Shown: positions 1 through 39,624 of the stretch, piece by piece
How the letters are laid out: the number at the start of each line of letters is the position of its first letter
Position numbering within the stretch: position 1 is the stretch's first letter
DNA from: Clostridia bacterium
Lineage (GTDB): Bacteria; Bacillota; Clostridia; HGM11514
Length of the DNA: 64,000 nt
Reading direction: 5' to 3'
Assembly: GCA_045586685.1 (NCBI GenBank)
Contig: JAZNAU010000020.1
Coordinates: 1 to 64,000 of the forward strand
Program-made: the position numbers and the translations under genes
The notes under the pieces: generated by a model
Databases searched by the model: none
What the model was told of the DNA's origin: nothing
What the model saw: only the letters and a program-made list of their open reading frames with translations

Positions 1-16
1 CCTTCTTTCTACAGCA

Positions 17-199
17 TTCAGCATCATTCGACACAATTCCTACTCGTGTCAAGTCAGGAGAACAGTGAATATTAGGACCTACTATTTTTATCCAATTTTT
101 TCAACTGTTATTTCTGAACAAAATTCTTTAGAACCCGCGAGAATACTGGATTTTCTCGCTCCCGATGATATATGTAAATATAATAAATCGGCAAACTAT
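17..199 (-). repeat. Structured intergenic repeat, copy 1 (~183 bp)
   Basis: Shares TTCGACACAATTC..CGTGTCAAGTCAGG.GAACAGTGAATA.TAGGACCTACTA...AGAACCCGC...ATATGTAAATA...ATCGGCAAACTA with copies at 4572 and 6901. Confidence 0.92.
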
Positions 200-218
200 T
201 CTTTTAAATTGTATAGAC

Positions 219-247
219 TTGACACGAGGGTTTTTAGGCCATATAAT
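219..247 (+). promoter_or_regulatory. Consensus sigma-A promoter pointing antisense into the KilA-N gene
   Basis: TTGACA (219-224), 17 bp spacer, TATAAT (242-247). Confidence 0.6.
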
Positions 248-254
248 TGAAAAT

Positions 255-1055
255 TTATTTCAAATACTTATGTCCCTTGTCCTCTTGAAGAACAGACATT
301 TGGTGTATTGCTATCTGATTAAGTTTTGTCAATCTTTCGCTTTGAGGAACACCTTCGTTTATTAACATTGCGTTTATGTTTTCTAAATTAGATAAGCATA
401 TTAATTCATTCATACTTGCATAATCTCTTATATTTCCTTTTTTGTCAGGATTTTCGTTTCTCCACTCTTTTGCAGTTTTTCCAAACAATGCCATGTTTAA
501 GACATCAGCTTCATCAGCATATACTACAGAGATTTGCTTGGGCGTAAGTAGCTCCGGAATCAAATTGTTTTTAATCGCATCTGTATGTATTCTGTAGTTA
601 ATTTTTGCAAGTTCTCTTTTCGCAGACCAGCCGATTTGCTTTTGCTCATCATTTTTCAATCTTTGAAATTCTTTAACAATATATATTTTGAATTCTGGAC
701 TGATCCACATTGCAAACTCAAAAGCAATGTCCTTATGAGCATAGGTTCCGCCATATCTTCCAGCTTTCGCTGTTATTGATATTGCATTTGTCTTCTCTAC
801 AAATTCCTTAACACTTATTTTGAAACTATTTAACCCTGAACGACTTGTTAATTCTTTAAATTCATCGTAATTGAAATTAGGATTGTAAACCTTTTCCCAA
901 GTTCCTATATACTCTAAAGTATTTCTATTTCTCAACCAGTCTGTAACAAAAAAATCTCCATCTTTTGCCTTAAGCATATCCGTTATACAAATATAGTCTT
1001 CGGATTCTATCTGTGTAATTGTTATTTCCGTATCTTTTACAATTAACTTTTTCAT
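255..1055 (-). CDS. KilA-N domain DNA-binding protein
   Basis: 266 aa; DYICITDM..WLRNRNTLEYIGTWE..GRYGGTYAHKDIAFEFAMWISPEFK motifs typical of KilA-N proteins; GGAGG RBS. Confidence 0.88.
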   Translation of the reverse strand: MKKLIVKDTEITITQIESEDYICITDMLKAKDGDFFVTDWLRNRNTLEYIGTWEKVYNPNFNYDEFKELTSRSGLNSFKISVKEFVEKTNAISITAKAGRYGGTYAHKDIAFEFAMWISPEFKIYIVKEFQRLKNDEQKQIGWSAKRELAKINYRIHTDAIKNNLIPELLTPKQISVVYADEADVLNMALFGKTAKEWRNENPDKKGNIRDYASMNELICLSNLENINAMLINEGVPQSERLTKLNQIAIHQMSVLQEDKGHKYLK

Positions 1056-1072
1056 ATAGTATAACCTCCGAT

Positions 1073-1102
1073 TTTAATTATGGCGAATTCGCCATAATTA
1101 AA
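1073..1102. promoter_or_regulatory. Perfect 30-bp palindrome, candidate operator upstream of the KilA-N gene
   Basis: TTTAATTATGGCGAATTCGCCATAATTAAA is its own reverse complement; lies 18 bp upstream of the start codon. Confidence 0.65.
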
Positions 1103-1160
1103 TTGTTTCACATCATTTGTTTTAACAATCTTCAAAATATCTTTTATTAAGTTCTGCAAA

Positions 1161-1799
1161 CTAATTTATTAAATCTTTTTCATTATATTTTAACGCATTT
1201 CTTACCGTTTCTAAAGCTTCCAAAATGTGTTCTTTTGCATATTCGTCAGCAAATTTTTCTGAAGGATATTTTGAATAAATTTCTTCGTTGTATTTTTCTC
1301 CCAGAATTCTCTTCATAGGATCACAATCGTTCATTTCATATATTTTTTTAAGTAATTCTTTATGTGGTTGACGAATTTTTCTTTCCATCTCGCAATATTC
1401 ATATGATGTTTTTTTACTATTCTTAAAATATATCCAATGTCCATATTCATGCAACACACTATAAATTGCTAGTACCAAGGAATACTCTTTTATATAAACT
1501 CTTGTTATGTAGCTTATTTCATTCATACGACTTTCAATAGCCATAGGATTTCTATTTCTTTCAAGTTGCAAATATTCTTCAATGTCTACATCCGGGAAAT
1601 ACAATCCCAAATCTTCATTATTATACTTTTTCTTCTGATCATGTGTACCCTTAATTAATGCATTTTTTTCTTCAACTCCCATAATTTTGCATAGAACATA
1701 GTTCTCTTTATTCAATTCATTTCTATTTGTAAAATGCACAGGAGCATCTATATTTAAAATGTCTATAAGCTTTTTGAAATCAATAGAAATATTTAACAT
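1161..1799 (-). CDS. Hypothetical HEXXH protein (ImmA/IrrE-like metallopeptidase candidate)
   Basis: 212 aa; VLHEYGHW motif plus downstream PSEKFADEYA. Confidence 0.55.
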   Translation of the reverse strand: MLNISIDFKKLIDILNIDAPVHFTNRNELNKENYVLCKIMGVEEKNALIKGTHDQKKKYNNEDLGLYFPDVDIEEYLQLERNRNPMAIESRMNEISYITRVYIKEYSLVLAIYSVLHEYGHWIYFKNSKKTSYEYCEMERKIRQPHKELLKKIYEMNDCDPMKRILGEKYNEEIYSKYPSEKFADEYAKEHILEALETVRNALKYNEKDLIN

Positions 1800-1948
1800 T
1801 AGTTTATTTCTCCCTTTTGTTAGCTCTTTATAGATAAAAAGTTGTTTTGATTCAATTTTAATATATATAACAACACCTTCAAATTATATCAATTTCCAAT
1901 TTCGTTAATCCTTATTTATCCAAAACTTTTTCCATATAGCAGAAAAAA

Positions 1949-3658
1949 TCAATCAATTATTTCAATTCGCATTGACGGTCTCACACCTCTATCATCTGCA
2001 TCTACTGGGCATCCAAAATAATACTTATCATCTAATTGTCCGGATGCCCATACTTCACACGCTTCATCGGATTTAATATAATTACTATACTCACCTACTG
2101 GTTTACCGCCAGGTGTTCTTAACCACCACCAGCTACCTTTTCCTTCAGAATCATTTGCAACATCAGCAAATGGTGTGGCTAATATTTTTCTGTCTTTTTC
2201 TGTCGAGAAATATAATTTTACTTCATCGACTGAAAGCAAAAATAATCTATCTTCCGTGTCGTTTCCTGCCGTTGTTTTTTGTTCTTTATTATCTTTATTT
2301 TCTATCCTCGTCCACAAGATCTGTTCTTGCTCATCATCTGTAAATGCAGAATTAATAAACTCGTTATTTAACCATTCCCTAATAGATGAATCTTCCCATG
2401 TAATTGGTGCTTGTACATAGTGATATGGCTGAACATCTAATACATATTTACTTATAACAAACAATCTGTTTTCATCTCTTTCAAGCACTTGCCATTCAAC
2501 ATCTTCTTTCCCATTTGTAGCATTATTATCTTGTTCATATTTTCCAAATGTTATAAAGTCACCTGGTTGTGCAAGAATGGGATGTTCTTTTAAGATTTCA
2601 GTTATTTTACTTTGACTATCTTTATAATTAATAATTTCTTTATATGTTTCATATGCATCGCTATACTTTTCTTGCTCGTATAAATTTGTCGCTTTTTCGT
2701 ACTTTTGTTCTGGTACAACGACGCAATTAACAAATACTGCACCACTAATAACAATCAATAATATTGGTAACATAGCAATTGCAACCTTTTTATTTTTCTT
2801 TGCTTGTTTATCTGCTATTTTTTTCTCTTCAGCAGATTTAATATTTTCATTTTCTCTTTCTTCACAATATTTTTGATAAGTCTTACCAATGTTTTCTTCA
2901 GTAAATTCTAATGCAATCTCTTTTTTCATTGTGCATTGTATGCACTCGTCTCCGGCATTTACAAAGCCACAAGTACACTGCCAATAATTTTCTTTAAAAA
3001 TAGAATAATAATTTGATTGTAAATTATATTTTTTAGCACATTCAATATGTATAGACTCCAACAAATTTTGGTTTGTACTAACCCAATTTTCTTCAATAGT
3101 ATCTAATATTGTACCATCAGCAAAACAAACCTTTTTAACTTTGACTTCTACCTTACGTATAGCATCATCTTGCAATATAGCATAAATCTCTCCGTGTTCG
3201 TTAGGATTAATAGTTAAATCCTGACCTATCACATCAAAGAAATCAGAATCATTCACGTTAACTATATCACCAAACGAATTAAACCCTGTTGCAGAAATCA
3301 TTACCGCAGATATTGCTTTTGAAGATACATTAATAAAATCTACAAACAATACTAACTTTTCAGCATCTTTCTTTATTTCCCATGATGTAATATGGGCAGG
3401 TGAGGAAATATTAACTTGTTTGTTTAAGATTTCGCTTGAAAGTAATTCCATACTATCATTAGTCGGTGAAGAACTCTCGATTACAACTTTGGCTGTGTTA
3501 ACACTTTGTTTTGTTAATGCAACAATCAATGCGAATATACCAAAGAAAAATCCCCACCAAAACCAATTCTCTTCATAACCTTTATTCTCAATTACCTTGT
3601 TTACAACAACACCCCATATAATGCCACCGATTATTGTTCCAACTATAATATATCCCAT
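1949..3658 (-). CDS. Membrane protein with zinc-ribbon, TPR-like segment and C-terminal DUF6273-like domain
   Basis: 569 aa; N-terminal TM hairpin, WQCTCG..CIQC, TM helix, then FGKYEQD..VEWQVL..WEDSSIREWLN..WWWLRTPG..GVRP. Confidence 0.75.
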   Translation of the reverse strand: MGYIIVGTIIGGIIWGVVVNKVIENKGYEENWFWWGFFFGIFALIVALTKQSVNTAKVVIESSSPTNDSMELLSSEILNKQVNISSPAHITSWEIKKDAEKLVLFVDFINVSSKAISAVMISATGFNSFGDIVNVNDSDFFDVIGQDLTINPNEHGEIYAILQDDAIRKVEVKVKKVCFADGTILDTIEENWVSTNQNLLESIHIECAKKYNLQSNYYSIFKENYWQCTCGFVNAGDECIQCTMKKEIALEFTEENIGKTYQKYCEERENENIKSAEEKKIADKQAKKNKKVAIAMLPILLIVISGAVFVNCVVVPEQKYEKATNLYEQEKYSDAYETYKEIINYKDSQSKITEILKEHPILAQPGDFITFGKYEQDNNATNGKEDVEWQVLERDENRLFVISKYVLDVQPYHYVQAPITWEDSSIREWLNNEFINSAFTDDEQEQILWTRIENKDNKEQKTTAGNDTEDRLFLLSVDEVKLYFSTEKDRKILATPFADVANDSEGKGSWWWLRTPGGKPVGEYSNYIKSDEACEVWASGQLDDKYYFGCPVDADDRGVRPSMRIEIID

Positions 3659-3689
3659 ATCTCATACATCCTTTCATGTGTTAATTACT

Positions 3690-4542
3690 TTAATTCAAAA
3701 AATCTTTATTTATACTTCCTATTTCTTCTTTCAAGGATTTTTTCATTTCTTTAAACATCTTTTTCATATGTTTATTTAATTCATCGCCAACACTTTTGCA
3801 ATTGTATTTACTGAAATAATCCAACTGCTCAGAAAGAAACTTCGTAGTTTCTTCTACTAACTTATAACATTCCTGTTCCTCTTTTTGATCTATGAAATCT
3901 TCTCCCTCTATTGTAACAATGCTTTCAAACAACTTTGTATATACAAACAAAACTATTACGCGTACCAAAAATTCGTTAATCACATTATCGCAAGTATAAA
4001 GATCGTTTTGGTTTATATAGTAATATACCGTCGAAAAATTACAGTGAGCAAAATCACATAAAAATCCATATAAATCGTAAAAATAATTCTTATCTTTCCC
4101 TAGCTTCATGTCTGATGGGTTTCGTTGTATAAAATCTATGATTTCATTTTTATCTCTTGTTCTTGCATTTTTTTCCATCAAATATTACTTTTCTTTGAAA
4201 AATCATTTGCGGAATAAATATAAAATCATTTAGCAAAGAATCATCATATTCTTCATCAATATATCTGCTAGCTAAATATCCCTCAAACATAGTTCTTGAA
4301 AGAACAAAAACATCTTCAGTGTGACCAATATCCAATAGTTTCCTGATAGATTCGAGAGATTTAGTGCTTTTTGTAAAAACAAAATACTGAAAATCACTTA
4401 TAAAATTAGCATCAGGCATCTTACCTAAAACATAGTTGTATTTTCCATATTGAAAGCAACCATAGTCAATAAATTTTCTTGCCCTCAAAATATATCTATT
4501 TATTAATTTATCACACTTTTTAATCTCTTCTCGTTTATTCAT
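3690..4542 (-). pseudogene. Frameshifted DUF5677-like gene (two overlapping ORFs 4150-4542 and 3690-4181)
   Basis: Removing one base from the A7 run (T7 at 4168-4174) fuses the ORFs into ~283 aa; LSRTMFE and YGFLCDFAH motifs. Confidence 0.65.
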
Positions 4543-4571
4543 ACTGCAAATTTCTCCATTATTTTGTAGTT

Positions 4572-4723
4572 TTCAGCATCATTCGACACAATTCGAGTTC
4601 GTGTCAAGTCAGGTGAACAGTGAATAATAGGACCTACTATTTCACCCTAACATTTTTCATCAGAACCCGCAGGAATATTAGATTTCCCTGCCCGATATGT
4701 AAATAGATTTATCGGCAAACTAT
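4572..4723 (-). repeat. Structured intergenic repeat, copy 2 (~152 bp, shorter central segment)
   Basis: Direct alignment to 17-199 and 6901-7066. Confidence 0.92.
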
Positions 4724-4741
4724 GATATTAAATTTTAAAAC

Positions 4742-5596
4742 CTATTCTTCATCTTCTGCAATACTTTCAATCAAATCAACCACGACCTGATTTAGTTCAG
4801 CAGCATTTTTCGATGTAATTACTGGCTTGCCTGTATCTGCCTCAATTTCCTTTCGTGCATTACCAGCATACTTTCCGCCCCTTTTTGCAATTTCACGATT
4901 TTCTTCAAAAGTTTGCGGATTATGTGCTTTTGATAATTCTGTAGTTGTCGCTTCTGCAAGCATATTAAGTACTAGTTCAAGAGTGCTCATATTATCTCTT
5001 AAATTTTCTTTTGTAAGTCCTTTGAGGTTTTTATATTTTCTTGTTGTCATTCCTGACCAAGCTTTTGTGATTTCATCTGTTAGAATAGCATACTCTACAC
5101 CTTTTTGAACACCTCTTGCATCCCATTCATCTGTTAATTCTTTTCTTACCTTAATAGCTTGCAACCTTTGGTTTATCCACTCCCGTGTATAACCTTTTTT
5201 AAAATATGTTTCAAGTGCTCTTTCTATTGTAAGTTCAGGATCAATGGTTTCCTCAATTCTTTCTCTACCCACTTGTGCCAACCACAACTTAAAAGGTTCT
5301 GCTTTTGGAGAAGGAATTGACTGAATAATACGAAGTAGTTGCTCGGTGTCAGCTACATCTGTTTTGTAATATTTACCATCAGTATGTGATTTTAATTTCA
5401 GTTGACTACAATTTGTAGCCGACTCGTTTCCTTCTTTTTTTAGGCGAGTTTTAAGAACACTCCAATACTTTCTTGGATTTGGACTGTCCGTTAAAACACC
5501 AACTACATCAACAACAGAAAAATACCATTCTTCCACCTCTTCATTCCAAGCAGTTCTTATTCTTATATCTTCAAATATTTGTATTTTATCATCCAT
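4742..5596 (-). CDS. Bro-N domain (phage antirepressor-like) DNA-binding protein
   Basis: 284 aa; IRTAWNEEVEEWYFSVVDVV..YWSVLKTRL..RIIQSIPSPKAEPFKLWLA..ENLRDNM. Confidence 0.85.
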   Translation of the reverse strand: MDDKIQIFEDIRIRTAWNEEVEEWYFSVVDVVGVLTDSPNPRKYWSVLKTRLKKEGNESATNCSQLKLKSHTDGKYYKTDVADTEQLLRIIQSIPSPKAEPFKLWLAQVGRERIEETIDPELTIERALETYFKKGYTREWINQRLQAIKVRKELTDEWDARGVQKGVEYAILTDEITKAWSGMTTRKYKNLKGLTKENLRDNMSTLELVLNMLAEATTTELSKAHNPQTFEENREIAKRGGKYAGNARKEIEADTGKPVITSKNAAELNQVVVDLIESIAEDEE

Positions 5597-5668
5597 ATGT
5601 ATATCCCCCGTTTAGCTACTTTTTAACACTTTATCTGTATGAATATATCAAATTAAAGCCTAAAAATA

Positions 5669-6424
5669 TTATCCAACTATCTTTTCTATCATCGTTGCAT
5701 ATTTCTCGCCCAATTCTAACTCTATATCTACTTTCAATTCTCTTCTTACAGCTTTTTCTTCAGAATCTTTAATTGGATTATATCCTGTCTTTTCGATTTC
5801 ATCCCAATATATGCCTACCCCTCTTTTTTGCCAGGATGGTAATTTGTCAAAGTTAATTCCTCTTGAGAAAAGCAGTTCATTTTTATAAGATACAGACTTA
5901 CCCTCTAGAAGAGATGTAGCACTCTCTACACTTTCGCCTTCTTTTCTTAACATCCAATAGCAGTGTGCATTAAGTGCATTTCTATGTGCATCCTCTTGTC
6001 GCCACAGAAAATAATCCTTTACCAATTCAACATTTGGCAATGGTACCAATCTACAATCAAAAGCAACCGGTTGTCCTAACTCCAAGGAGAATGTTGCGCT
6101 TGCCATTCCAGCAAGAATAGAATTGTATTTACGAACTTTTCGGCCAAATGTATTCTCATTCCGATGAAACAGAAGGGAAATCTCATCACTCTCCGTATAA
6201 CCATAAATAATTCTGAATCCACAATCCATTAATCTCTTTACGGTTGCAATCATCATATTTCGAAATCTTTCATCAAACGGGGCTTCAAAATTACATGCTT
6301 CCTTAGTAAGTCGAGAAAAGTTTCTACCATCTAAACGAGCAACCAAATATAACTCGTTTAATACTGTTTGATCTATGGACTGCTCATATACTCGCATTTT
6401 TTTATCTAAATCATCAAATTTCAT
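5669..6424 (-). CDS. tRNA(His) guanylyltransferase Thg1-like protein (3'-5' polymerase)
   Basis: RLDGRNFS, YTESDEISL, FDCR and WRQEDAHRN motifs; start chosen at the ATG after a GGAG/AGGA RBS. Confidence 0.92.
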   Translation of the reverse strand: MKFDDLDKKMRVYEQSIDQTVLNELYLVARLDGRNFSRLTKEACNFEAPFDERFRNMMIATVKRLMDCGFRIIYGYTESDEISLLFHRNENTFGRKVRKYNSILAGMASATFSLELGQPVAFDCRLVPLPNVELVKDYFLWRQEDAHRNALNAHCYWMLRKEGESVESATSLLEGKSVSYKNELLFSRGINFDKLPSWQKRGVGIYWDEIEKTGYNPIKDSEEKAVRRELKVDIELELGEKYATMIEKIVG

Positions 6425-6428
6425 TTTC

Positions 6429-6875
6429 CTATCTCCAGTCTTCAACAATCATAATATTACCATCGTTTTTTACAAAGTAAAGTTCATCAAATCCCTCGTC
6501 GTATTCAGGGAGTTGAAGTTTGTTGGATGTAGCTGCAATTGCTTTTGCAGGGATACACGCTTTTCCCTCTCTTTTGTTATTTCGCTCGATACATTCCTTA
6601 ATCTTTGACTCCACAAAATAACCAACAATTCTGTAGCCTTCCTTTTTAGCTTGTATTATGTATTTCTTCCGTTCCTCTTTTGTTGGATTTGTGTTATCTA
6701 TTACAAAACTTTCTCTTGTTACAAAACATTCATTAATTGCCATTTGTTCTTGGTATCTTGTTTTTAACGTATCAAGATTAATCCTTTTATAATCTGCAAG
6801 AAAGTTTTGGCAAAAAGTGCTTTTTCCACTTCCTTGTATGCCAATCATTATTACAATTGTTTTTTTCACATACAC
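6429..6875 (-). CDS. AAA_33 / polynucleotide kinase-like P-loop protein
   Basis: GIQGSGKST Walker A, VIDNTN, ERNNKR and EGFD motifs. Confidence 0.85.
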   Translation of the reverse strand: MYVKKTIVIMIGIQGSGKSTFCQNFLADYKRINLDTLKTRYQEQMAINECFVTRESFVIDNTNPTKEERKKYIIQAKKEGYRIVGYFVESKIKECIERNNKREGKACIPAKAIAATSNKLQLPEYDEGFDELYFVKNDGNIMIVEDWR

Positions 6876-6900
6876 GCCACCTTTCGCAGTTATTCCACAA

Positions 6901-7066
6901 CATTCGACATAATTCGACTCGTGTCAAGTCAGGTGAACAGTGAATAATAGGACCTACTAAATTTTCCTTATTTTTTCAACTGTTTTTCTTTGAACAAAAT
7001 TCTTTAGAACCCGCAGGAATGTTATATTTTCCTGCCCAATATGTAAATATCAAAATCAGCAAACTA
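6901..7066 (-). repeat. Structured intergenic repeat, copy 3 (~166 bp)
   Basis: Direct alignment to copies 1 and 2. Confidence 0.92.
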
Positions 7067-7071
7067 ATGTA

Positions 7072-7896
7072 TTAAATTTTTCTAAGCACCCTACAATAGT
7101 ATGGTCTATCCTTAGGAGCTTCCTCGACAATTTCAAAAATACCATTGGCAATCATTTCATCTATTCTCCACGCCACAAAACTATCCGAAACACAAAGTTT
7201 ACACAAAGACTTACCTAGCAATTCCGCTTCTTTGAAAGTATCCGTCATCTTTTCTGACTCTACTTTAATAATAGAATCATAAAAATCCTCATGCACACTA
7301 ACTATTTCTCCCATAATAACTGTTCGCAATTGGGTATTTTCTTCTTTTGCTTTATGCCATTGCTTAATATGAGCTTCTTTATATGCTTTTGTTAATTTTC
7401 TTTGAGAAAACACCAATTGAGCAAGTTCTTCAGGATCAAACGCACCTGAACCAAAATATGTTTTATAATCTCCATTATTGAAAAGAATACTATTAGGCAA
7501 TTTTACATAAAAAATCTTTTCATTATCTATTCCCCAAGAATCCAACAAACAAAGCATCCAACAAAAAGCACATAATTCATCCGGATACTCACTATACCAT
7601 ATCCTAATTTCTTCACCAGATTTAGCAAGTTTTTCTAAACTCGATACAACTTTAATTGTTTTATCAAACCACTTTGCACGATATATAGTTTCACTTCCAC
7701 CTCCATACAAATTTGCGAATTCACTTCGTCTCTCCTTGCCAATTTCATCAAAGGATATACTACCCATACTCAAATTCATATATATTGAGTGTAGATTTGC
7801 CTTTAAATCTTGTATTTCGCTATTGTCCTGTTTCGCATAATAATCAGCCATTTTCAAACTTCCTGATAAAGAATCAGAAAAAGCAATATTTATCAT
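7072..7896 (-). CDS. DUF1835/DUF3658-like protein
   Basis: IAFSDSLSGSLK, LSMGSI, IRIWYS, EENTQLR, SVHEDFYD and SDSFVAWRI motifs; ATG at 7896 follows an AGGAG RBS. Confidence 0.75.
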   Translation of the reverse strand: MINIAFSDSLSGSLKMADYYAKQDNSEIQDLKANLHSIYMNLSMGSISFDEIGKERRSEFANLYGGGSETIYRAKWFDKTIKVVSSLEKLAKSGEEIRIWYSEYPDELCAFCWMLCLLDSWGIDNEKIFYVKLPNSILFNNGDYKTYFGSGAFDPEELAQLVFSQRKLTKAYKEAHIKQWHKAKEENTQLRTVIMGEIVSVHEDFYDSIIKVESEKMTDTFKEAELLGKSLCKLCVSDSFVAWRIDEMIANGIFEIVEEAPKDRPYYCRVLRKI

Positions 7897-7924
7897 AAGT
7901 ACACACTCCTCTTTTAACAATATT

Positions 7925-7960
7925 TTCGACACAATTCGACTTTTGTCAAGTCCGGTTGAA
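7925..7960 (-). repeat. Partial copy 4 of the intergenic repeat
   Basis: TTCGACACAATTCGAC.TTTGTCAAGTC.GG matches the gene-proximal end of copies 1-3. Confidence 0.8.
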
Positions 7961-7962
7961 AA

Positions 7963-8035
7963 TTTCAATGAATTAAATTATAAATTTCAATTCATGACGT
8001 AGGGCAATTCAATGAGTTTGCTTTGCAAACTTATT
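7963..8035. repeat. Degenerate ATGAATT/AATTCAT hairpin mosaic element
   Basis: TTTCAATGAATT, CAATTCATGAC and GGCAATTCAA words also occur in the element at 39655-39815. Confidence 0.5.
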
Positions 8036-8079
8036 ATAGAATCTTTGAACAATTCAGACGTCACATGCTTAGATATGAT

Positions 8080-8733
8080 TTAATCTTTATCATTTTCCAA
8101 TTCTATTTTAGGCAAACTCCAACAATATTTCGTTGCAAGCATTCGTATTGCCACTACCAAAAGCAGTGTGGAAACTGAAACCAATGAAATATTTTCAAAA
8201 TATTTTCTTAATATAAAATACAATAAACTACCTGAAATTGAAGCCAAAGCATAAATATGTTTTTTAAAGACATACGGTGTTGAATCTGTTAATATATCAC
8301 GAAAAATTCCACCGCCAATACCGGTTATCATTCCAATTGTAACAATAATAAATCCGTTATCCGAAAAACCGTGTATATACCCAACTTCAGCACCTGTTAC
8401 AGAAAACGCTGCTAATCCGATTGCATCAAAAAAATTATTAACATACTCAATTTTCATTCTAAAATAATTAAATTTTTGTCTGTTTATGTAAGCAATGATA
8501 AAAACAATTACCGATACAACCATTGCAATAAAACATATATTATAATTCAAAAAAATACTCGGAGGATTGATGCCTAACATAATATCTCTCACTATTCCTC
8601 CTCCAACCGCCGTAATGCAACCAACAAACACGACTCCAAATATATCAAGTTTTGCACCAATAGCAACCAATGCACCCGACACAGCAAAGGCTATTGTACC
8701 TATAATTTCCAATACTTTTATTATTTCTGTCAT
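8080..8733 (-). CDS. Trimeric intracellular cation channel / UPF0126 family membrane protein
   Basis: GTIAFAVSGA, TAVGGGIVRD, DAIGLAAF and GIGGGIFRD repeats. Confidence 0.9.
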   Translation of the reverse strand: MTEIIKVLEIIGTIAFAVSGALVAIGAKLDIFGVVFVGCITAVGGGIVRDIMLGINPPSIFLNYNICFIAMVVSVIVFIIAYINRQKFNYFRMKIEYVNNFFDAIGLAAFSVTGAEVGYIHGFSDNGFIIVTIGMITGIGGGIFRDILTDSTPYVFKKHIYALASISGSLLYFILRKYFENISLVSVSTLLLVVAIRMLATKYCWSLPKIELENDKD

Positions 8734-8931
8734 TTTAACTCACTCCAGATATATTTATTATAAATCGACTCAACAATGCAGATGTCATCTTCTTTGAATT
8801 CATTATAAAATCAGCAAACGACTTTAATTCCACTTATTTAAAGGCATTGTTTACTTAATTATAAGTATAGCACATATTATTAGAAATTTCAATTAAAAGG
8901 AACAAATTTCATCACTTTAACTATAACTTTT

Positions 8932-9095
8932 TTAAAAAGTTTCACTCCATCTTGTATGTGACAAACTTTCTGTATCAAGTTTCATTCTTGGTTACCTCCT
9001 TTGTTTTTGTGCGGTTGGCAAACCTACACTAATTCTATCACAGTTCTACTCATAGCGAAAAGCTTTTTTGAACGACGGGCATAGCCCGTGGTATT
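8932..9095 (-). mobile_element. Truncated IS200/IS605-family remnant (left end plus tnpA 5' stub)
   Basis: Hairpin ACGGGC-TAT-GCCCGT, then GGTTTGCCAACC, RBS AAGGAGGT and ORF MKLDTESLSHTRW (8985-8932) resembling the IS200 TnpA N-terminus, stopping after 17 aa. Confidence 0.72.
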
Positions 9096-25016: not shown

Positions 25017-25112
25017 ACTTGCGCCCGGTTTTCAAAATCGGACAATCTCCACGGAAAAACCTACATATTCTATGTAGCAACCTCCCGTTTCATCGTATGC
25101 CATACGTCACAC
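25017..25112 (-). ncRNA. Candidate rpsJ (S10) ribosomal leader RNA within a ~350-nt 5' UTR
   Basis: GAUGAAACGGGAGGUUGC-CUACAUA/UAUGUAG stem-CCGUGGAGAUUGUCCG..CGGGCG, just downstream of the promoter; resembles Firmicute rpsJ leaders. Confidence 0.6.
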
Positions 25113-39175: not shown

Positions 39176-39249
39176 GCGGGTGTAGTTCAATGGCAGAATC
39201 CCAGCCTTCCAAGCTGGTCGTGTGGGTTCGATTCCCATCACCCGCTCCA
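39176..39249 (+). tRNA. tRNA-Gly (TCC)
   Basis: CCAGC-CTTCCAA-GCTGG anticodon arm; CCA end. Confidence 0.96.
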
Positions 39250-39256
39250 TTTTTAT

Positions 39257-39333
<77 letters not shown>

Positions 39334-39339
39334 ACCTAT

Positions 39340-39417
39340 GGTGGGTATAGCTCAGTTGGTTAGAGCGCTAGATTGTGGCTCTAGAGGCCGTCGGTTCGAA
39401 TCCGACTATCCACCCCA
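39340..39417 (+). tRNA. tRNA-His (GTG), with genomically encoded G-1
   Basis: CTAGA-TTGTGGC-TCTAG; G at 39340 opposite discriminator C. Confidence 0.96.
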
Positions 39418-39441
39418 CCAGTTTTACCTTACTACTTATAT

Positions 39442-39518
39442 TGGGATGTAGCCAAGTCGGTAAGGCACCAGACTTTGACTCTGGCATTTCGTAGGTTCGA
39501 GTCCTGCCATCCCAGCCA
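39442..39518 (+). tRNA. tRNA-Gln (TTG)
   Basis: CCAGA-CTTTGAC-TCTGG; CCA end. Confidence 0.96.
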
Positions 39519-39548
39519 AAACGGGAAGGACGAGCCTTCCCACAATAT

Positions 39549-39624
39549 GGACCATTAGCTCAGTCGGCAGAGCACTTGACTTTTAATCAAGGTGTCCGGG
39601 GTTCGAATCCCCGATGGTCCACCA
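39549..39624 (+). tRNA. tRNA-Lys (TTT)
   Basis: CTTGA-CTTTTAA-TCAAG; CCA end. Confidence 0.96.

Follow-up and report, generated by a model that had tools for sequence, protein, structure and literature searches.

We describe a repeated element of ~190 nucleotides (nt) found in DNA from a Clostridia bacterium, positions 1 to 64,000 of contig JAZNAU010000020.1 (GenBank assembly GCA_045586685.1); this whole stretch of 64,000 nt is called the window below. Three copies lie on its minus strand, which is the sense strand of the genes, at ~47-231 (copy 1), 4602-4737 (copy 2) and 6922-7081 (copy 3). The interpretation that we favor, with some reserve, is that the repeat marks the boundaries of gene cassettes in an integron-like array. 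What we observe is a family of such elements, an array architecture, a pattern of linkage between the element and its two neighbors, array-head sites that have only the end of the element, and covariation in one hairpin. From these we infer site-specific exchange; tandem large serine recombinases found beside some of the arrays offer a lead, and only that, to the enzyme.

Element family and array architecture

The family was collected by scanning a one-genome-per-species collection with a 24-letter degenerate pattern derived from the most conserved block, which gave at least 120 stretches. A profile built from those stretches finds at least 201 element matches in at least 120 loci, and all locus and copy counts below refer to these. 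Among the matches listed, all come from Clostridia metagenome-assembled genomes (for example Congzhengia, Ructibacterium and Oscillospiraceae), several with ruminant-gut titles. An alignment of 137 sequences has a mean pairwise identity of 80%. Five further genomes have 7-11 matches each, spread over 2-5 contigs, and the element is carried by 7 of 41 relatives, in three families of the class and with 74-91% identity to copy 1; near-identical elements can be found in different bacterial families beside unrelated genes. The genome of the window itself has five copies at two places, plus two core-only sites. No match to the element was returned by blastn searches of phage and plasmid collections or by a pattern scan of viral contigs, and searches of open-access papers and bioRxiv preprints turned up no account of arrays of this kind. 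Assembled contigs often break at the element. In four gut metagenomes, bins that hold the element reach a summed contig depth of 81-745, several-fold to tens-fold that of most bins in between; over the genes there, the depth is mostly 0-30, with the exception of the Bro-N bins, where it reaches ~280. Many different continuations are seen past positions 228 and 4596, the element's two ends.

None of the 120 loci has element copies on both strands, and 714 of the 857 open reading frames (ORFs) share the strand of the element. A same-strand ORF ends within 300 nt upstream of 116 of the 135 full copies, typically at a distance of 0-50 nt, and some of these ORFs have their stop codons inside AATTTAATA; on the other side, 110 of the 135 are followed within 300 nt by the start of a same-strand ORF. 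Cassettes bounded by two elements (n = 56) have a median length of 1060 nt. One ORF is present in 36 of them, two to five in 16 and none in 4, and 79 of 81 ORFs in these cassettes are co-oriented. The cargo is diverse, with the 857 ORFs falling into 603 clusters. When 80 cassette ORFs are scanned with Pfam, the recurrent families are Bro-N (five), zinc ribbons (three) and, with two each, RhuM, KilA-N, GDSL lipases, esterases, MFS and WapI; cassettes also carry recurrent PADLOC candidate families (PDC-S13, PDC-S05, PDC-S04 and PDC-S22), a type I specificity subunit, transporters and hydrolases. The arrays at loci L014, L026, L032, L110, L113, L130 and L025 end at a recurrent GC-rich terminator hairpin, AAAGCCTTCCCCTTGAGGGGAAGG, and what follows the hairpin resembles, by eye, the 3' end of a convergent tRNA-type gene.

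Sixteen ORFs from 9 loci make up the largest ORF cluster, that of a large serine recombinase whose domains are Resolvase, Recombinase and Zn_ribbon_recom. These recombinases are always encoded by two or three tandem genes on the same strand, ending 20-280 nt upstream of an element; among them are a trio of the L126/L133 type, with a DUF6870 neighbor, and a pair of the L103 type. Their best NCBIfam matches are XisF and CcrA/B/C, far below the cut-offs. No element or core was found upstream of the recombinase genes in the 700-900 nt read at four loci or in the ~14 kb searched with nhmmer in locus L133.

What travels with which gene can be read from pairs of copies that share only one flank. For pairs sharing the upstream flank (43 by BLAST extent, 17 by a stricter ungapped definition), the element bodies are far more alike than in random pairs; the likeness extends as far as the invariant block AGTAGGTCCTATTATTCACTGTTC and falls to the random level at the variable positions that come next. 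For pairs sharing the downstream flank (22, or 4 by the stricter definition), the bodies look random. Alignment column 220, within CCT[G/A]ACTTGACA and immediately before CTTGACA, is associated with the leader class found downstream (none of 500 shuffles reaches the observed association) and unlinked to the haplotype of the P2 hairpin described below, and column 203 has a weak lean in the opposite direction. The leader classes, given by the first five bases after CTTGACA, are CGAGT (47 copies), CGAAC (28), AAAGT (15), AAATC (14), CGAGC (13) and others. The element body moves with the upstream gene, and the sequence past CTTGACA moves with the downstream gene. The unit is thus a leader, its ORF or ORFs and an element, and the switch from one unit to the next falls within the last ~40 nt of the element.

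The window's array begins at 7925-7956 on the minus strand with a core-only site, CCGGACTTGACA followed by the leader hairpin AAAGTCGAATTGTGTCGAA. It corresponds to only the last ~30 nt of the element, the ~165-nt body being absent, and by analogy may play an attI-like role. When the head sites of four arrays are compared (this one, one on contig C54 of the same genome and two in other genomes), only CC(T/G)GACTTGACA and the leader hairpin are common to them, and the T-rich sequences that precede the core are unrelated. Since 12-14 shared bases are too few for homologous (RecA-type) exchange, the first cassette, at the least, must have come in by site-specific or illegitimate exchange.

If the repeat bounds cassettes as we propose, the mobile unit would consist of a short leader, one or a few same-strand ORFs and the ~190-nt element, and such units would be strung head to tail behind a core-only site of the chromosome. 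Units would be exchanged within the element's 3' end, in the stretch that separates AGTAGGTCCTATTATTCACTGTTC from the core CC(T/G)GACTTGACA, with the element as the analogue of attC and the head site as the analogue of attI.

Hairpins and a promoter-like region

The pairing of the hairpin stem P2 was evaluated in the 137-sequence alignment, made with MAFFT, by comparing its covariation score with shuffles and with controls in which the partner is slid. The arms are GCGAGAA/TTCTCGC in copy 1, GCAGGAA/TTCCTGC in copy 3 and GCAGGGA/TTCCTGC, with one minus-strand G·U, in copy 2. P2 alone is predicted by RNAalifold from the 137 copies, and with a seventh pair 98.5% of the cells are paired. Pairs 94-112 and 95-111 come in two states, GC/AU (87 and 86 sequences, respectively) and AU/GC (46 and 45), and G·U intermediates are seen as well; a single compensated change affects pair 96-110. 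The score is 0.177, compared with 0.131 ± 0.005 for the shuffles (0 of 500 reach the observed value) and 0.025-0.10 for slid partners. The swap largely separates two haplotypes tied to the long and short types of the neighboring P1 region, with few recombinants, and so represents few independent events. The cells comprise 923 Watson-Crick pairs, 21 G·U, 10 A·C and 5 others, a modest lean toward the sense strand that is no proof.

The initial annotation, made at copy 2, described a covarying multi-hairpin structure that folds on the minus strand and is under selection as a single strand. Its three copies and the base changes that it listed are borne out on the minus strand, and P2, with two adjacent pairs swapped in 45-46 sequences, supports a selected fold; the other stems do not. 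P1 is CCGAT/ATCGG in copies 1 and 2 and, on the minus strand, CTGAT/ATTGG with two G·U in copy 3. It was counted by script, because MAFFT puts its 3' arm in different columns for the long and short types, and is fully paired in 107 of 133 copies. A compensated double change never occurs; the departures are G·U (GTCGG, ATTGG, CCGGT) or plain mismatches, and in 12 copies the arms are replaced by a consensus promoter, so that multi-hairpin covariation is not upheld. The terminal stem TTGACAC/GTGTCGA does need a U·G in all three copies, and a complement of at least 6/7 to TTGACAN is present within 32 nt in 62% of copies compared with 22% of shuffles; it lies, however, in the leader of the next cassette and is not part of the fold of the repeat. 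Sense-strand folding has the wobble counts of P2 in its favor, but not the 3' palindrome (AACAGTGAA..AATAG TAGGTC CTATT..TTCACTGTT, whose 5' half varies while its 3' half is constant), which is more stable on the sense strand in 48 and less stable in 78 of 126 copies and thus has no sense preference. The excess of complementarity in this palindrome is modest, with a mean z-score of -0.88 and 30 of 126 copies within the best 5% of shuffles. Conservation among the 137 sequences is at least 90% in each of the five blocks called invariant; two of them, TATTCACTGTT and TAGGTCCTA, were forced by the search pattern, and their invariance is therefore partly a matter of ascertainment. Rfam 15 gives no match to the element at the gathering score in the window and seven loci. 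The best sub-threshold match (E ≤ 10) on copy 2 is C0719, with 17.6 bits against a gathering score of 50, and the best on an insert-bearing form of the element (see below) has 21 bits against 60.

Folds of the three single copies in the window are unremarkable (z-scores from -0.2 to -1.9), and the plus strand folds about as well. A 5' inverted repeat, CTCGTGTCAAGTC ... GACTTGACACGAG, is a further feature of the element: of the 137 copies, 72 have at least 11/14 pairs between it and the 3' core, and 39 lack it. The terminal inverted repeats have no covariation with their flanks: the score within the same element is 4.87 compared with 4.81 ± 0.07 (231 of 1000 shuffles reach it), and the score within the same cassette is 5.07 compared with 5.12.

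An extra insert of 65-70 nt can be found inside the invariant 3' block of 15 copies, none of them in the window, with an imperfect flanking duplication of ~15 nt. Carriers are loci L015, L024, L027, L040, L044 (5778-5915, minus strand, is an example), L052, L078, L080, L083, L085, L107, L123 and L129. The insert forms two hairpins with compensated stems, TTATGC/GCATAA vs TTGTGC/GCACAA and, for the second stem, ACCCAACA/TGTTGGGT vs CGAAATATA/TATATTTCG vs CGGAATATA/TATATTCCG; one instance folds into a three-way junction closed by the 3' palindrome, with a z-score of -2.97. RNAalifold misses the outer stem because MAFFT gaps the variants against each other. Judged by eye, nothing speaks more strongly than this insert for the element being read as a single strand in this part, and the insert could be a new structured RNA or single-stranded DNA domain, or a mini-insertion. 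A different small GC-rich hairpin insert, GGGGCGATTCACGAATCGCCC, is present in the variable A-rich linker at L023, L068, L090 (4183-4424), L115 and L107.

The hexamers of the P1 region suggest that it may fire as a sigma-70-like promoter. Long-type copies have TTGCCG-N16-TATACT, and copy 1 has N18-TATCAT; the promoter form is strict in 30 of 137 copies and relaxed in 72. Short-type copies offer only an alternative, TTTACA-N17-TAATAT/TAACAT. In 12 copies, the arms of P1 are swapped for TTGCAA-N17-TGATATAAT, which has consensus hexamers and an extended -10, with P2 and everything downstream kept. In seven of these, tandem large serine recombinase genes can be seen immediately upstream; three are cut within the C-terminal coding sequence of the same recombinase, and L019 and L054 have other upstream sequence. 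In two recombinase-adjacent copies, L082 and L126, TTGACA is fused upstream of the -10 hexamer of the P1 region, 18 nt from TATACT in L082 and with no fitting spacing in L126. Head copies thus improve the promoter and lose the pairing, which argues that the P1 region acts as DNA. The promoter would consist of TTGCCG and, 16-18 nt on, TATACT or TATCAT. P2 follows it directly and would lie at the 5' end of the next cassette's transcript or close to it; a start ~7 nt after the -10 would place it at that end, which would explain why P2 covaries and P1 does not. P2 would then act as RNA rather than as top-strand single-stranded DNA.

A more specific reading, which we put forward tentatively and with more doubt than conviction, makes the system an integron analogue of gut Clostridia. 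In it, the element would combine a recombination site (core CCTGACTTGACA), the promoter of the next cassette and a folded leader, and capture at a core-only chromosomal site would be carried out by an enzyme other than IntI; this could be a recombinase encoded by the host, or large serine recombinases of the tandem kind could act in trans. The textbook example of gene capture and shuffling is the integron. If the reading is true, cassette arrays were invented independently in Gram-positive bacteria, the cassette strategy evolved more than once, and every cassette would be expressed, rather than the first few only; a further recombination system would also be indicated. Accessory and phage-defense genes of uncultured gut bacteria could then be mined by finding the element and reading between its copies. 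P2 and the compensated insert of the 15 copies are candidates for a new structured RNA or single-stranded DNA motif.

The array in the window and related sites in the genome

Compared with copy 2 by BLAST, the repeat copies give E-values from 5e-7 to 9e-31, copy 1 being matched as two pieces. Copy 1 (47-231, minus strand) is full length, with an nhmmer score of 177 bits and 13/14 terminal inverted-repeat pairs; its 5' inverted repeat CTCGTGTCAAGTC is at plus 219-231 and its core CCTGACTTGACA at plus 47-58, and it combines a long-type P1 region with the GCGAGAA/TTCTCGC hairpin. It is followed on the minus strand by the leader of the next cassette (1-46), where a purine-rich ribosome-binding stretch accompanies the hairpin arm GTGTCGA (plus 28-34). 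Because the window is the first 64 kb of its contig, C20, the assembly ends here before the array does; a continuation was sought at the other contig ends of the same genome, and none overlaps the start of C20. On the antisense (plus) strand, 219-247 is a 12/12 match to the sigma-70 consensus, TTGACA-N17-TATAAT, whose -35 is the 5' inverted repeat of copy 1 and whose -10 is in the end of the upstream cassette. A promoter at this place would read into the KilA-N gene.

Copy 2 (4602-4737, minus strand), the site of the initial annotation, is of the short type and is without the 5' inverted repeat. Its parts are the core CCTGACTTGACA (4602-4613), an invariant block (4615-4638), the P2 hairpin (4669-4691), the arms of P1 (4692-4696 and 4711-4715) and TAGTTTGC (4715-4722). 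The leader hairpin TTGACAC...GTGTCGA (4583-4607, minus strand) spans the junction of element and cassette, its 3' arm being part of the leader of the downstream cassette. Copy 3 (6922-7081, minus strand) has a short-type P1 with two G·U and the GCAGGAA/TTCCTGC hairpin, and its first bases, AATTTAATA, contain the stop codon of the upstream ORF.

All genes of the array are on the minus strand. The first cassette encodes a DUF1835/DUF3658 protein (7072-7896), with a likely ATG start at 7896 behind GAGGAG. The interval between copies 3 and 2 (4742-6921) has three ORFs, for an AAA_33 P-loop kinase (6429-6875), a Thg1-like protein (5669-6448) and a Bro-N protein (4742-5596) that matches PADLOC PDC-S13. 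The gene for the Thg1-like 3'-5' nucleotidyltransferase overlaps the kinase gene by 20 nt (5669-6875), and this pair suggests an RNA repair or modification module as cassette cargo. The long interval between copies 2 and 1 (232-4601) starts with a leader (4543-4601) and has five ORFs. A DUF5677 gene (3690-4542) is split into two overlapping ORFs (4150-4542 and 3690-4181), which suggests a frameshift or a decaying cassette gene; the others are DUF6273 (1949-3658), a 212-aa ORF of unknown family (1161-1799) and KilA-N (255-1055), which matches PADLOC PDC-S22. The interval is probably several fused cassettes. Within it, 1145-1179 (minus strand) is a remnant of the first ~35 nt of an element (AATTTAATAAATTAGTTTGCAGAAC), which we read as a decayed junction. 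Beside this remnant, between the 212-aa ORF and KilA-N, there is a perfect 30-nt palindrome of 13 pairs (1073-1102) that looks like a terminator or a relic of a junction.

Upstream of the array head there is a glycine-transporter/TRIC-type gene (8080-8733) and then the rplQ-rpoA-rpsD-rpsK-rpsM operon. Genes are exclusively on the minus strand over positions 1-8733, and the G+C content is 27-34% per kb over 1-9000 and 41-47% in the following three kb. Farther along, the window contains an S10-Clostridia ribosomal-protein leader (25019-25101, 42.9 bits) and a cluster of five tRNA genes (Gly, Arg, His, Gln and Lys; 39176-39624), both of them ordinary features that fit a genome of the Clostridia.

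Elsewhere in the genome, two divergent copies on contig C11 (17203-17365 and 18788-18940; locus L010) flank a single MATE efflux gene, and what follows the downstream copy is a convergent terminator and no gene. On contig C54 (8842-8888; locus L011), a second core-only head site, TGTTCCTGACTTGACAC, with a leader hairpin and a ribosome-binding site, precedes a small ORF at a distance of ~320 nt from the end of the contig; a second array, broken in assembly, probably begins here.

Recombinases, alternative explanations and known systems

Several observations weigh against the cassette reading or its more specific form. Homologous exchange focused on the longest identical stretch would yield the same linkage inside arrays, so that it is by inference that exchange there is called site-specific. 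The intervals in the window hold three and five ORFs rather than one. Promoters are barely more frequent than expected, with 57 found in the overall scan compared with 44 ± 7.6 in shuffles, and in short-type copies, copies 2 and 3 among them, the -10 (TATCGG) is poor. The window's island has no recombinase gene, and tblastn finds no large serine recombinase in its genome, whose other contigs have four tyrosine recombinases (PF00589; C38, C10, C13 and C6), two small serine recombinases and a borderline match to a Y1 transposase (PF01797, 23.8 bits). Phage_integrase is not among the 25 families listed for the representatives of the 60 largest ORF clusters. Co-distribution of the serine recombinases with the element was considered and rejected: homologues (E ≤ 1e-40) occur in 3 of the 7 relatives with the element and in 10 of the 34 without it, and in no relative do they share a contig with the element. 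Recombinase-adjacent copies make up ~12 of the 120 loci and could mark an unrelated mobile element inserted beside array heads; L019 and L094 have identical junction surroundings and different upstream sequence, as do an occupied and an empty insertion site. In the contigs of the four gut metagenomes, no circular cassette or excision product was seen. Several joints there connect the boundaries of cassettes in a different order (84 to 4641 and 5611 to 4572 are examples); their short sides are 21-55 nt and they may stem from other organisms, and they are not counted as evidence.

An alternative to which we give some weight, though we consider it unlikely, is that the repeat is a purely regulatory module, either a promoter with a structured 5' leader or a processing or antitermination RNA, in an accessory-gene hot spot whose repeats are homogenized by gene conversion. 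Covariation of P2 with its modest sense-strand lean, the promoter-like hexamers and their consensus versions in array-head copies, the two-hairpin insert, which is compensated as in a folded nucleic-acid domain, and the lack of a recombinase near the window's array would all fit, as would a position always upstream of a same-strand ORF with its own ribosome-binding site. Yet the body of the element is linked to the upstream gene and not to the one that it would regulate, core-only head sites exist, the C11 copy precedes a convergent terminator instead of a gene, and near-identical elements recur in different families with unrelated neighbors; nor is there an Rfam match or a remarkable single-copy fold. 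We regard as improbable a non-autonomous transposon of the miniature inverted-repeat transposable element (MITE) kind, with terminal inverted repeats of 13-16 bp, that has spread into intergenic gaps. It would account for the inverted-repeat pairs in 72 of 137 copies, the high summed depth in gut metagenomes and the contig breaks at the element, but not for a 5' repeat that is absent in 39 copies, for the single strand per locus that follows the genes, or for clustering in arrays (in the window's genome, five copies in two places and two core-only sites). A target duplication was not noticed on reading the flanks, where no dedicated test was run; the flanks of the inverted repeats do not covary, and the phage, plasmid and viral collections have no match.

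We give equally little credence to the repeat being the att site or hot spot of elements with tandem large serine recombinases, in which a pile-up like that of the staphylococcal cassette chromosome (SCC) would leave junction repeats. Tandem recombinase genes are 20-280 nt upstream in nine loci, three more loci are cut within a recombinase, and there are three junction types; the side upstream of the recombinase genes, where sequence exists, lacks element and core, and the distant XisF and CcrA/B/C matches point the same way. However, the recombinases are neither co-distributed with the element nor present in the genome of the window, cassettes of ~1 kb with one ORF are far smaller than SCC-type elements, and the repeat is ~4 times longer than the att site of a serine integrase (~40-50 bp). 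Least probable by far is a canonical integron attC site or a phase-variable invertible promoter, for all that the array layout is integron-like and that about half of the copies have a promoter-like segment between inverted repeats. An attC site folds on the bottom strand, with extrahelical bases, and has the boxes R'' (RYYYAAC) and R' (GTTRRRY), with crossover at G|TT. Here, wobble pairs lean modestly to the coding strand, such boxes were not found by reading, the ends on the sense strand are (CTC)GTGTCAAGTC and CC(T/G)GACTTGACA, and the window's contig has no tyrosine recombinase. As for an inverting segment, none of the 201 copies is inverted relative to others in its locus, 714 of 857 ORFs follow their strand, and 39 of 137 copies are without one of the repeats; among the joints listed for the four metagenomes none changes strand, which is weak evidence, since contigs drop rare variants.

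Among known systems, integrons and clusters of attC sites lacking integron-integrases (CALINs) are similar to the proposed cassette arrays in several respects. Cassettes are co-oriented, mostly with a single ORF and ~1 kb long, and an imperfect-palindromic site travels with the upstream ORF; exchange is placed at the 3' end of the site, and a simpler primary site is at the array head. The cargo is diverse and includes phage-defense candidates, and many arrays have no recombinase nearby, as in CALINs. The length of attC is 57-141 nt, and its conservation is mainly in structure, whereas the element described here is ~190 nt and conserved in sequence across species, with no R'' or R' boxes, with promoter-like hexamers and with a wobble lean to the coding strand. 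The only recombinases adjoining these arrays are large serine recombinases, and no IntI was found. The attC analogy drawn in the initial annotation thus holds for the architecture of the array, and not for the boxes or the integrase. In the portions of Cury et al. (2016, PMC4889954) that were consulted, all Firmicutes genomes are without complete integrons and CALINs are found in Firmicutes.

Resemblance to the SCC islands of staphylococci lies in tandem accretion behind one housekeeping locus (here the rplQ end of the ribosomal operon), in repeated junctions with inverted repeats, in units with and without recombinase genes of their own and in distant Ccr/XisF-type recombinases that come as pairs or trios. 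SCC islands use the large serine recombinases CcrAB or CcrC and an attB in rlmH. Their units are tens of kb in size rather than ~1 kb, and in the arrays the junction repeat is structured and ~190 nt long and the recombinases are not co-distributed with it.

The pdif modules of Acinetobacter plasmids and other Xer-exploiting elements are small modules between inverted short sites that are served by host-encoded recombinases. The absence of a dedicated enzyme beside the array would be analogous, but no 11-6-11 dif-like site was recognized by reading, and the spacing of the TTGACA/TGTCGA arms varies from 7 to 12 nt; TATGTAAA resembles the XerD arm of Bacillus dif over only 8 nt, a weak match given AT-rich DNA. 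Finally, Correia elements of Neisseria and the BOX and RUP repeats of pneumococci are short repeats with terminal inverted repeats, with promoter-like hexamers in their end regions and with hairpins in transcripts. Those repeats are scattered genome-wide in both orientations, whereas the element described here is confined to arrays, co-oriented with genes and found across bacterial families.

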